Virus record (IMG/VR): IMGVR_UViG_2778261639_000016
From: a virus
Taxonomy: Duplodnaviria > Heunggongvirae > Uroviricota > Caudoviricetes
Strand: one strand, 5' to 3'
DNA: 9,588 nt
The position numbers and the translations under genes were made by a program. Positions 4,345 through 7,446 of this stretch are shown here, piece after piece. Each line of letters opens with the position of its first letter. Position 1 is the first letter of the stretch. The notes beneath the pieces were generated by a model. It was not told the origin of the DNA. It did no database searches and saw only the letters and a program-made list of their open reading frames with translations.

Positions 4345-4442
4345 TTAAAGGAAAAGTTGCTGTCTGATTCTCATTAGTCTAACATTTTAAATGTTGGAAT
4401 CGCAACGTAGTTATTATCATATAACAGCTTGTTTCCTGATTT

Positions 4443-4473
4443 AGCCAGCCTCCCCAAAGGCTGGTTTTTTTCT
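4443..4473 (+). terminator. Rho-independent terminator downstream of quuD (tR'-like)
   Basis: Stem AGCCAGCC (4443-4450) / GGCTGGTT (4459-4466) with loop TCCCCAAA, followed by a run of 7 T's (4465-4471). The position after Q matches the lambdoid pR'-tR' arrangement. Confidence 0.7.
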
Positions 4474-4499
4474 AATAAGTATTATTTCGGGTAGGGATT

Positions 4500-5024
4500 T
4501 TATTGTTTAACCCATAATAATTCATTGACATTGAATCCCAACTTTTGAGCGGTTCGCACATAGTCTGCTTTTACTTTATCTGGAATAGTTGGGGTCCTTG
4601 CCAGAATCCATAGGTATTCTCTGTTCGGACCACTGACAAGAGCATACTTATACTCATCATCCAGTTTGATTACATTATAGCCACCATAGAAGGGGCCAAA
4701 AAACGAAACCTTCAACGCTGCAGTTTTAGTATCTCCAGTAAAGTATGCTTTACCTTCGCTCTCGCTCCATTTATTTTTCGTTGGATCGTATCCACGGTTA
4801 AGTACACGAATCCCTCCGTCGTTCCGTTTTCCATAAGTAGCGCTGACCTGTTCCAGACCACGTTCGAACCGGTTCTCGAGGCGAGCTATTTCATACCATT
4901 TTCCGAGGTAGCGGTTGGCGTCAAAATTTGTAATCGGCTGCACACCTTTAGGTGGTGTCGGGGCCTTACATGCTATAAGAGTGAAAGAGAGTGCAATGCC
5001 AGTCAACACAGGCCATAACTTCAT
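4500..5024 (-). CDS. blc: Outer-membrane lipocalin lipoprotein (Blc-like)
   Basis: 174 aa; lipobox LIAC with Cys19 and Lys at +2 (outer-membrane sorting); lipocalin SCR1 motif GKWYEIARL; strong similarity along its length to recalled E. coli Blc (NFDANRYLG, FERGLE, GKAYFTG, LKVSFFGPFYGGYNVI, YLWILARTP). Confidence 0.9.
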   Translation of the reverse strand: MKLWPVLTGIALSFTLIACKAPTPPKGVQPITNFDANRYLGKWYEIARLENRFERGLEQVSATYGKRNDGGIRVLNRGYDPTKNKWSESEGKAYFTGDTKTAALKVSFFGPFYGGYNVIKLDDEYKYALVSGPNREYLWILARTPTIPDKVKADYVRTAQKLGFNVNELLWVKQ

Positions 5025-5216
5025 AATAAATCCTGTACTTTTGATAGTTGAAAGTAAGTATGAAAGATAGATGATTACGACCGATCACTTAAAGAACTTT
5101 CATACTATATTAGGAATAGTCCATAACAGAAAAATTGTCAGTGATGACGCCAGAAAGGCAATTTATTCCGTGCACTACACAGTTTATGTGTTAATGAATT
5201 AGTCAAGGGGGAGAAT

Positions 5217-6176
5217 ATGATAAAAAAACCTGTGATTGGAATCAGCGGTTGTTTGGCCGGTTCTGCTGTTCGTTTTGATGGTGGTCACAAAAGAGCTGAC
5301 TTTTTAATGGACAAATTAGTGGAATGGGTAACATTCAGACCAGTATGTCCGGAAATGGCTATAGGGCTGCCAGTTCCGCGTCCTGCTCTACGTCTTGTGC
5401 GCTCGACGCAAGGAAATATACGGATGTGTTTCAGCCACGACCAGAATGAGGATGTGACAGAGAGAATGACAGAGTTTAGTCGTTCTTATATGGACAAATT
5501 AAAGGATGTATCGGGGTTTGTGGTTTGTGCTAAATCTCCCAGCTGTGGCATGGAGCGCGTGCGTGTCTATGATGAAAATGGTAATCGAGGTCGTAAAGAT
5601 GGAGTGGGACTATTTACGAGCACTTTGATGGAAAAGTTTTCCTGGCTACCGGTTGAAGAGGATGGGCGATTACATGATCCAGTGCTTCGTGAGAATTTTG
5701 TTGAAAGAGTTTTTGCTTTGCATGAGCTCAATCACCTTTACAAGGAGAAATTATCAAGAAGAGAGTTATTAGCTTTTCATAGTCGTTATAAGCTTCAGTT
5801 GTTGGCGCATAGTCAGGCAGGCTATAAAGATATGGGACCATTTGTGGCTGCAATACACGAGTGGGCGGACCTTGAATCATACTTTGAGGTGTATCGTGAT
5901 AAGCTGATGGCGATTCTCAGAAAACCTGCGTCACGTAAAAATCACACGAATGTGCTGATGCATATACAGGGGTATTTTAGTAACTACTTAAGTACACGCC
6001 AGCGTAAAGAGTTGAGCGAGGTTATACTTAACTATCGTTCTGGCACATTACCTCTTCTTGCGCCGTTGACTCTGCTGAAGCATTATCTGGGTGAGTATCC
6101 TAATGATTACTTGCTTACACAGAATTACTTCGATCCCTATCCGGACGAACTGGCTCTAAGACTGATGGTAAATTAA
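5217..6176 (+). CDS. DUF523 (TudS-like) / DUF1722 (YbgA-like) fusion protein, putative [4Fe-4S] thio-nucleobase desulfidase
   Basis: 319 aa; SD AGGGGGA 5 nt before ATG; N-terminal motif GISGCLAG...VRFDGGHK typical of DUF523; cysteines at 12, 44, 104 and 110, consistent with a 3-Cys cluster-binding pattern; the C-terminal half resembles YbgA-type DUF1722. Transcribed divergently from the lipocalin gene. Confidence 0.75.
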   Translation: MIKKPVIGISGCLAGSAVRFDGGHKRADFLMDKLVEWVTFRPVCPEMAIGLPVPRPALRLVRSTQGNIRMCFSHDQNEDVTERMTEFSRSYMDKLKDVSGFVVCAKSPSCGMERVRVYDENGNRGRKDGVGLFTSTLMEKFSWLPVEEDGRLHDPVLRENFVERVFALHELNHLYKEKLSRRELLAFHSRYKLQLLAHSQAGYKDMGPFVAAIHEWADLESYFEVYRDKLMAILRKPASRKNHTNVLMHIQGYFSNYLSTRQRKELSEVILNYRSGTLPLLAPLTLLKHYLGEYPNDYLLTQNYFDPYPDELALRLMVN

Positions 6177-6527
6177 TTGTATGCGATATCATCCAAAAGG
6201 ATGAGTTCCTGCATGCAGGATATTTACAATCGTAAAAACTACACTATGATACCCAGAGTGTCAGTTTGTATAAAAACTCTGTTTACGCTGAAGAAACCAT
6301 TGAGATGCAACTTAAAGTTGGTAAACATGCCAGTCAAAATATATAATATTATGATTCCACGCAGCTATATATAATATAACAGATTGGTTTAATAATTTGT
6401 CTTTGTGAGTTAAATACATAATTTTATACTTGTGATGCAATGAGATTTTCCTTATTGTTGAACTGGCGAATATTGATTTTCCACCTATACTTACCTGGTG
6501 TAACCCCAATGATATCAGGTGGATAAT

Positions 6528-7258
6528 ATGCCATACATATGTTCTATCATTTTGGTGTTGAACTCGTTTGATGTCCGAATTGGTAAAGAAGATACTTTGT
6601 TTAAAAAAGGAAGTGCTGTTCTCATTGATTACAATTTAAAAGATTTTTTTCATCAAATATAGATCATGTAATGATCGTAGATGTTGAAGAGAAAACAGTT
6701 AATGATTTCTTTAAAAGCAACACACTCTCATCTTTTTCTGTAAGAAGGTTTTATCCGGCATACTTGATGGTGGAATGTGAAGATTTTTCATTGTTAAAGA
6801 ACTTGATTGCATGCTTGAATTGTGATGGCAGAACTGTGGATTTTGTTAGAAATCAAATATCACTTGCATGTCTTGCTATCTTATCTTCAGAGAAAATAGT
6901 GCAAAGTTTTTTATTTGGATGTCTTAATAGTTTAGGAAGTAAAGTTAAGGCTATTATTCACACGGATATATCTGCAGCATGGAGACTTTGTGATATATCT
7001 TCAAGACTGTATCTGAGTGAAAGTCTGTTAAAAAGAAAATTAAAGCACGAAGGCTTATCATTTAGTAAGTTAATTCTTGAAGAGCGAATGGTGATGGCGG
7101 AAAGGTTATTAAGCTACAATTTATATTCTGTTGGAAAAGTTGCTGAGATATGCGGTTATGAAAACACGTCATATTTTGTAAGTGTTTTCAGAAGATATTT
7201 TGGTGTTCCTCCCCATCAATATTCATCAAGATTTTTTTTAGAAAAAGACATGATGTAA
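6528..7258 (+). pseudogene. AppY-like AraC-family regulator interrupted by a frameshift in a T7 homopolymer
   Basis: ATG at 6528 with SD AGGTGG gives MPYICSIILVLNSFDVRIGKEDTLFKKGSAVLIDYNLKDFFHQI then TAG (6660-6662); this resembles the AppY N-terminus (MDYVCSVVFICQSFD...FKKNSLFIV). The 195-aa ORF 6671..7258 is in another frame, open from 6629, with IVDVEEKTVNDFF resembling AppY IVDIDKKTCLSFF and a C-terminal AraC HTH. The two frames meet at the T-run 6644-6650; one extra T would give one ORF of about 243 aa. Confidence 0.7.
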
Positions 7259-7320
7259 CGTGATGCGTTTTAATGATTTTGTAATTTTCGTATTTGATAA
7301 TTGTATGATGCTTTCAGCTA

Positions 7321-7351
7321 CGCCAGAATAATCGCTGGCGTTTTTCTTTTT
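7321..7351 (+). terminator. Rho-independent terminator between the AppY-like gene and the holin
   Basis: Stem CGCCAG (7321-7326) / CTGGCG (7335-7340), 8-nt loop, followed by TTTTTCTTTTT (7341-7351). Confidence 0.6.
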
Positions 7352-7446
7352 GAATAGATGTTCAAGCCTTACGCTAATGTAACTTCTATACCTTTCCTCT
7401 TCGTTCCGAACCGTGTACACCATCCGTTATTTGCGGAGGTGAGGCT

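Follow-up and report, generated by a model that had tools for sequence, protein, structure and literature searches.

The segment between the antiterminator gene Q and the holin gene of lambdoid phages and prophages is a known site for cargo genes. In Stx phages it holds stx, for which Q-dependent expression is established, and in the DLP12 prophage of Escherichia coli K-12 the equivalent position holds the porin gene nmpC, interrupted by the insertion sequence (IS) element IS5. We analyzed this slot in a stretch of viral DNA, the 9,588-nucleotide IMG/VR record IMGVR_UViG_2778261639_000016 (hereafter the window), which covers the right half of a lambdoid E. coli prophage of the DLP12 type. Here the slot is filled by three genes, together referred to as the cassette, which encode a Blc-type lipocalin (blc), a RudS protein (rudS), and an AraC-type regulator. 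An initial annotation of the window had described a three-gene AT-rich insert between Q and the holin and had recognized the position as a known cargo slot, and our analysis bears out both statements.

E. coli Blc is located in the outer membrane and binds lysophospholipids or fatty acids. Mathieu et al. (Nat Commun 2020, PMC6969025), who sequenced 1H12 and its relatives, listed blc as a moron carried by over half of their 19 infant-gut lambda phages. RudS was defined as a TudS desulfidase joined to DUF1722 that strips 4-thiouridine (s4U) from tRNA (Jamontas et al., NAR 2024, PMC11417400). In that work, overexpression of RudS_KT in E. coli diminished the growth delay induced by ultraviolet A (UVA) light. 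RudS_vir was the single viral example, with its cluster cysteines at positions 12, 44, and 110 as in RudS_ST; it lowered tRNA s4U and gave the shortest lag on 4-thiouracil. For prophage regulators of the AraC type, a review describes PatE (z0321), in OI-8 of EDL933, as a prophage-encoded activator of gadE and hdeAB, and activation of gadE/hdeAB-type acid-resistance promoters has been reported for both PatE and PsrB. In the Q systems described, the late promoter (pR'), a sigma-dependent pause element, and a terminator come directly after the Q gene.

A moron cassette in the Q-holin slot

The cassette and the genes that border it are listed below by position in the window, with the strand in brackets.

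3967..4344 (+), Q-family antiterminator, 125 amino acids (aa) in the CE10 annotation (Phage_antitermQ, E = 2.5e-51)
4327-7435, block exchanged relative to K-12 DLP12, whose homology ends at 4326 and restarts at 7436
4500..5024 (-), Blc-type outer-membrane lipoprotein lipocalin, 174 aa (Lipocalin_2, E = 7e-44)
5217..6176 (+), RudS, fusion of a TudS/DUF523 desulfidase and DUF1722, 319 aa (both domains in Pfam)
6528..7258 (+), AraC-family regulator of the YdeO/GadX/AppY/PatE type, 243 aa in intact copies (HTH_18, E = 6e-15)
7447..7662 (+), essD holin of the phage 21 S type, the first lysis gene 3' of the cassette (Phage_holin_2_1, E = 2e-35)

The cassette is lysogenic-conversion (moron) cargo. 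It lies in the Q-holin slot, the content of that slot is replaced in related prophages, and its GC content departs from that of the backbone (0.38 for 4345-7440, against 0.49 in each flank). By gene, the GC content is 0.44 for blc, 0.435 for rudS, and 0.32 for the regulator. The cassette thus resembles both stx and the nmpC of K-12 as a composition-deviant block in the same position, and it further resembles nmpC in that blc is a minus-strand gene for an outer-membrane protein. It differs from the stx cargo in having no toxin gene and in that its dependence on Q is here only proposed. The breakpoints of K-12 homology show that the swapped block includes the last codons of Q and both of the terminators discussed below. 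The initial annotation had placed the insert between two terminators, and while hairpins with T-runs are present at both ends, they and the end of Q belong to the exchanged block rather than bounding it.

At least 80% of the 3.1-kb block was found in 992 of 5,426 complete E. coli genomes (~18%), while 1,156 had any match, and the best matches reached 99.7% identity. The products are annotated in these genomes as a lipocalin family protein, a YbgA family protein or DUF523 and DUF1722 domain-containing protein, and a helix-turn-helix domain-containing protein. At least two prophage backbones carry the cassette, namely DLP12 at argU and a Qin-type prophage with hokD, rem, ydfU, ydfR, rrrQ, and cspI, whose copy shares 92.6% identity with the window. 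This value falls within the 90-95% band, and the 430 genomes found in that band may hold Qin-type copies. The cassette is also present in the cultured temperate phage IdasGreatGrand (99.2% identical to the window) and in eleven lambda-like records from infant faeces, including 1H12, Lambda_2E9, and ev087 (~87%). All three phages whose annotation was inspected (Lambda_2E9, IdasGreatGrand, and 1H12) have the order Q, blc, rudS, regulator, holin.

Each of the three proteins has its own PHROG family, and their clusters at 90% identity have 1,100 to 2,600 members each. A literature search for the lipocalin/rudS/regulator trio as a unit returned nothing relevant. In E. coli lambda-like prophages the cassette is common and already catalogued, with most of its components known. 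The initial annotation had not recognized the combination as one previously described; what we found instead is, for the most part, a common and annotated DLP12 variant with characterized function, which occurs in cultured phages and of which RudS_vir has been assayed (PMC11417400) and blc is a known moron (PMC6969025). As a separate observation, the cassette appeared at 94-100% protein identity on two short contigs of a 'Candidatus Nanosynbacter' metagenome-assembled genome, and these contigs are almost certainly misbinned E. coli DNA.

The family proposals for the first two genes, a minus-strand Blc-like lipocalin and a divergent DUF523/DUF1722 protein, were confirmed by domain searches. The lipocalin matched the NCBIfam Blc model NF007786 with 316 bits (cutoff 267) across residues 1-174, and the structure of E. 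coli Blc in the PDB (3MBT) with E = 3.5e-69. Its N-terminus, MKLWPVLTGIALSFTLIAC|KAPT, contains a lipobox, L-I-A-C, with Cys19 as the lipoprotein cysteine (read by eye, without a predictor). Like E. coli Blc (3MBT, 1QWD), it is a full-length Blc-family lipoprotein with a lipobox, and its gene is the one annotated 'Lipocalin Blc' in the infant-gut lambda phages (PMC6969025). It differs from the chromosomal blc of E. coli in being a paralog, not a copy, with ~70% identity in the PDB alignment as judged by eye.

In the middle gene, both Pfam domains were found with E-values near 1e-40: 2-thiour_desulf (PF04463, residues 7-149, E = 3.1e-40) and DUF1722 (PF08349, residues 192-309, E = 1.9e-40). The protein is the syntenic ortholog of gp66 of phage 1H12 (H3V29_gp66, RudS_vir), with 93% aa identity and 21 differing residues over the 319 aa that both have. 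The [4Fe-4S] cluster cysteines Cys12, Cys44, and Cys110 are all kept (positions per Table 1 of PMC11417400), as are the catalytic residues Glu46 (Cys+2), Arg55 (Cys+11), and Ser107 and Ser109 (Cys-3 and Cys-1). The spacing of the Glu, Arg, and Ser-x-Ser positions from the cluster cysteines is the same as in RudS_KT (Glu51, Arg60, Ser111, and Ser113). On these grounds the window RudS is predicted to be a tRNA 4-thiouridine desulfidase. It is the equivalent of RudS_vir in gene, cassette, and position; it differs in being the DLP12-type allele of a cryptic prophage, with a predicted function. RudS_vir was treated in isolation in the published work, and here it is seen within its cassette. The same paper states that E. 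coli is without TudS or RudS homologues (PMC11417400). For RudS this fails for the species as a whole, because ~18% of complete genomes carry the cassette; in K-12 the DLP12 slot, the one region inspected, is free of it.

The third gene had been called an AppY-like regulator from a 195-aa open reading frame (ORF). Its placement in the AraC-type family stands, but the AppY label does not, and the ORF is a remnant. Relative to CE10, a run of eight T is reduced to seven at 6644-6650, which frameshifts the gene and brings a stop after 47 codons; the remaining ORF, 6671-7258, keeps the helix-turn-helix (HTH) domain. Several complete genomes have a 731-base span for the regulator gene, consistent with the seven-T allele there, which suggests that the frameshift is a real allele of the lineage rather than a sequencing error. 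The intact CE10 regulator has a C-terminal double-HTH AraC domain and an N-terminal domain that is likewise homologous to the YdeO/GadX/PatE type; it matched the NCBI YdeO model over residues 1-234 (E = 1e-36) with 127 bits against a cutoff of 348 and is not an equivalog; it also fell below the cutoff of the GadX model. Orthology with AppY was ruled out (31% identity over 237 aa), the two sharing a broad clade only, as was a paralogous relationship to the regulator encoded by neighbouring ybcM (22% identity, confined to the HTH).

The regulator stands closer to the YdeO model than to AppY, and closer too to a 247-aa O157:H7 protein, with which it shares 54% identity over 235 aa and which is identical to Sakai ECs_0287, the sole AraC-type gene in Sakai prophage Sp1. 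We take Sp1 to correspond to CP-933H/OI-8. By its location in Sp1/OI-8, and by that only, ECs_0287 would be PatE; a cluster look-up for the name of this homolog gave generic names only and left PatE unconfirmed. The window regulator shares family, size, full-length homology, and the character of AT-rich prophage cargo with PatE (Z0321, OI-8/CP-933H), AppY, PsrA, and PsrB, but is an ortholog of none of them and is frameshifted here. Phages ev099 and mEp332, like Sp1, also carry related AraC regulators; theirs stand at a position flanked by tail-fibre genes on one side and by the integrase or the end of the prophage on the other, and such genes are recurrent prophage cargo in that slot. The window regulator lies in the Q-holin slot instead of this tail-fibre/integrase slot.

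The blc-rudS pair on enterobacterial chromosomes

We surveyed chromosomal rudS loci with one genome per species, which gave 62 Enterobacteriaceae species loci. Chromosomal RudS proteins were 66-77% identical to the cassette protein and came from Citrobacter, Enterobacter, Leclercia, Lelliottia, Kluyvera, Klebsiella, Pectobacterium, and others. A divergent Blc-like lipocalin gene lay upstream of rudS in 41 of the 62 loci, and all but two of these 41 lipocalins were 77-82% identical to that of the cassette, which is accordingly nearer to the rudS-linked lipocalins of Enterobacter and relatives than to E. coli Blc. The cassette therefore resembles the chromosomal loci of the Salmonella ORF319/STM1389 type both in its RudS and in the divergent lipocalin. 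This linkage is newly seen here, and the phage captured a pre-existing pair. Neither a lipocalin neighbour of rudS nor a Blc-rudS linkage is mentioned in PMC11417400 or its supplement.

The chromosomal and phage arrangements differ in two respects. In most chromosomal loci (36), an MlrA-like MerR regulator gene and a transthyretin-like gene stand between blc and rudS, whereas the phage cassette has neither. The directly adjacent arrangement of the cassette was seen in Citrobacter sedlakii and one other Citrobacter, with gaps of 188 or 229 bp, compared with 192 bp in the window. The 192-bp intergenic region of the window (5025-5216) is 90% identical to that of the 1H12 allele but showed no homology to the C. 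sedlakii blc-rudS intergenic region. The phage cassette also has an unrelated AraC-type gene 3' of rudS, while none of the surveyed chromosomal rudS loci has one. Because the pair is chromosomal, because these loci are without the AraC gene, and because the GC contents differ (0.44 against 0.32), we read the cassette as having two origins, the capture of a blc-rudS pair and the separate gain of a regulator.

The conserved synteny of blc, the MlrA/BluR-like gene, the transthyretin-like gene, and rudS may mean that these genes share a role in stress, possibly one related to light. A stronger version of this idea would make blc and rudS a functional unit, that is, a near-UV or photo-oxidative stress module captured from an enterobacterial chromosome. 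RudS would then clear tRNA of s4U8, which UVA can crosslink, and thereby allow translation to go on in sunlight, and the outer-membrane lipocalin would handle damaged membrane lipids, as related plant lipocalins are thought to do. With rudS behind Q, the enzyme would be switched on in UV-triggered induction and would sustain host translation for late phage protein synthesis. We regard this stronger version as unlikely.

Expression from the slot and competing explanations

The candidate regulatory features within the exchanged region are the following.

4345..4499 (+), Q-proximal non-coding segment, 155 bp, 97% conserved across four alleles
4357-4362 and 4380-4385 (+), candidate late promoter, TTGCTG and TAACAT with a 17-bp spacer, a weak match found by eye
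4443-4466 (+), tR'-like terminator hairpin with a 9-bp stem and U7, 99 bp past Q, invariant in four alleles
5025..5216 (no strand), divergent blc/rudS intergenic region, 192 bp, 33% GC, delimited by composition
6177..6527 (no strand), AT-rich and indel-prone spacer between rudS and the regulator, 32.5% GC, 67% identical to the 1H12 allele
7320..7351 (+), terminator-like hairpin (7320-7341) with a T-run to 7351, from the terminator scan, ~100 bp before the holin

The explanation that we consider probable is that of a moron cassette of lambdoid prophages in the Q-holin slot, composed of the captured blc-rudS pair and a separate AraC regulator, and expressed both in the lysogen and under Q. In the lysogen, the cassette genes would run from their own promoters, with the plus-strand terminator at 7320-7351 insulating the lysis genes. 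When intact phages grow lytically, RNA polymerase modified by Q would start beside Q and pass both terminators to reach the lysis genes, producing sense transcripts of rudS and the regulator and an antisense transcript of blc. RudS, as a [4Fe-4S] desulfidase, would convert tRNA 4-thiouridine to uridine and so remove the near-UV photosensor of tRNA, and the regulator, by analogy, would activate host stress genes such as acid-resistance genes. The gene identities, their conservation, prevalence, and synteny, and the purifying selection on them are shown by our data, and a lowering of tRNA s4U has been shown in published work for the 93%-identical ortholog, whereas in this scheme we infer the promoter positions, the Q dependence, the regulator's targets, and any fitness benefit.

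For the lysogenic state, the divergent region 5025-5216 presumably holds promoters, and the promoter scan placed a site at 5048-5075 (+) in the blc/rudS gap. Sigma-70-like sites at 6223-6250 and 6318-6347, with 10 of 12 consensus matches each, were found in the spacer before the regulator. The scan gave 13 promoter-like sites in total, against 10.3 +/- 2.8 in shuffled sequences, which is no excess. Both terminator hairpins are specific to the plus strand, and the one at 4443-4466 is not a blc terminator because it has no U-tract on the minus strand. The 91-nt stretch around it folds at -26.2 kcal/mol (z = -4.5 against shuffles), while the hairpin of 7320-7351 has a 7-bp GC-rich stem in a statistically ordinary fold (z = -0.9).

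The proposal that cassette expression is coupled to prophage induction, which the initial annotation had put forward, is architecturally plausible. The Q protein itself is a mosaic with a breakpoint near 4190: residues 1-75 are those of K-12 QuuD with one substitution, and the HTH-like C-terminal ~50 aa are diverged. Its match to the Q21 structures 6P18/6JNX was weak (E = 2e-8). The C-terminus diverges along with the downstream DNA, as would be expected if the DNA-recognition region and its target site were inherited together. The Q-proximal segment is better conserved than the other non-coding DNA of the cassette and occurs in 1,113 genomes, close to the number with the cassette (counts, not genome sets, were compared). 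A search of 4330-4480 for a Q21-style Q-binding element found no direct repeats and did not locate such an element. By sensitive blastn, neither the Q-adjacent nor the holin-adjacent segment had a K-12 counterpart beyond chance words of 8-12 bases. The only repeats observed near Q were the terminator stem and a 10-1-10 palindrome at 4378-4398 (TCTAACATTT/AAATGTTGGA), which overlaps the candidate -10 and is kept only in part in the 1H12 allele.

Several points weigh against this explanation. The candidate promoter beside Q matches the consensus at only 3 of 6 and 4 of 6 positions and was not returned by the promoter scan. In K-12, the lysis operon has been described as having a regulated promoter region near essD, so the late promoter could lie 3' of the cassette. 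Although well expressed, RudS_vir acted on tRNA less strongly than most other RudS enzymes (PMC11417400). The function suggested for the regulator derives from its 54% identity to a protein equated with PatE by location only. Finally, selection on the cassette is not uniform, because many copies are interrupted by IS elements and the window copy is frameshifted.

The first two of these points are also what speaks for placing the cassette outside the late operon. The Q-dependent promoter would then lie just upstream of the holin, the hairpin at 4443-4466 would end the early-right/Q transcript, and the three genes would be lysogen morons unlinked to induction. The divergence of K-12 and the window upstream of the holin, which extends to 11 bp before its ATG, fits this arrangement as well. 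It is opposed by the layout of the described Q systems, with pR', pause element, and terminator directly after Q, by the extra conservation of the 155-bp segment and its cassette-like genome count, and by the parting of the HTH-like region of Q from K-12 QuuD together with that segment. The promoter scan also found no promoter-like site between 7342 and 7446. We give this arrangement a low probability, and Q-driven expression of the cassette, as plausible as the architecture makes it, is what we infer.

Whether the cassette is kept by selection or only by linkage is a separate matter. The window copy is partly decayed, with a frameshifted regulator and a 305-bp deletion relative to CE10 at 7859-7860, which removes the C-terminal ~100 codons of the endolysin gene rrrD and the first 10 nt of rzpD and leaves two remnants.

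7662-7859, rrrD remnant, truncated by the deletion
7859-8310, rzpD remnant, start deleted

The deletion leaves this prophage unable to lyse cells by means of its own endolysin, and it is absent from GF131, the best match to the whole window. The DLP12-type prophage of CE10 has only a partial integrase and recombinase, with no repressor or replication genes between these and ybcL. Insertions of IS1, IS3, and IS911 were found in several cassette copies, and in the Qin-type copy of NEBExpress, a derivative of E. coli B, the lipocalin is intact, rudS is cut after ~49 codons by IS3, and the regulator is missing. All of this would suit a cassette that is decaying, neutral baggage of a cryptic prophage. 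Yet between the DLP12-type and 1H12 alleles the ratio of nonsynonymous to synonymous substitution rates (dN/dS) was 0.065 (blc), 0.10 (rudS), and 0.27 (regulator), and values well under 1 for all three genes between diverged alleles indicate that the genes are in general maintained. In the window, blc and rudS are intact and encode proteins identical to those of CE10, the cassette is retained in virion-forming phages, and ~18% of complete genomes carry it. We consider neutral baggage quite improbable as an account of the cassette in the window.

A role in anti-phage defence or superinfection exclusion is the least probable of the readings considered, and we think it very improbable. Variable prophage slots often hold defence genes, the lipocalin is a lipoprotein of the surface compartment that might, like Cor or Llp, occlude a receptor, and RudS alters tRNA, an editing that could hamper incoming phages. 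However, a PADLOC profile search matched none of the three proteins at E <= 0.01, and blc-rudS is a conserved chromosomal locus in many Enterobacteriaceae, beside an MlrA-like regulator and with no phage context.

Neighbouring genes and biological meaning

Upstream of the cassette, the window carries the 3' end of ybcK, followed by ybcL, ybcM, ybcN, ninE, ybcO, rusA, ylcG, and the Q-family antiterminator gene; after the three-gene insert come essD, rrrD, rzpD/rzoD, and bor/iss on the minus strand. The matching arrangement in CE10 adjoins tRNA-Arg, beside a partial integrase gene. Searches with Rfam at the gathering threshold and with ARAGORN found no hidden RNA genes in the window, such as those of Stx phages. 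Two further cargo elements were observed. A second AT-rich block at 904-2262, upstream of the nin region, comprises ybcL (PEBP/Raf-kinase-inhibitor-like) and ybcM (AraC-type). A bor/iss-type serum-resistance lipoprotein gene at 8342-8635 (-), just past the spanin genes, is a second classic moron.

The value of the cassette as a discovery is small, given that it is common and annotated and that earlier work had described two of its three genes in the same phage cassette. Its meaning lies more in what it brings to its hosts. A RudS encoded by a prophage is present in roughly one fifth of complete E. coli genomes, and E. coli strains may for this reason vary in their tRNA s4U levels and in how they respond to near-UV light. 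Where the regulator is intact, it could also affect host physiology, as its relatives PatE, AppY, and PsrB rewire acid resistance and virulence gene expression. The recurrent linkage of a Blc-type lipocalin with rudS, apparently unexamined so far, hints at a shared, possibly light-related stress function.

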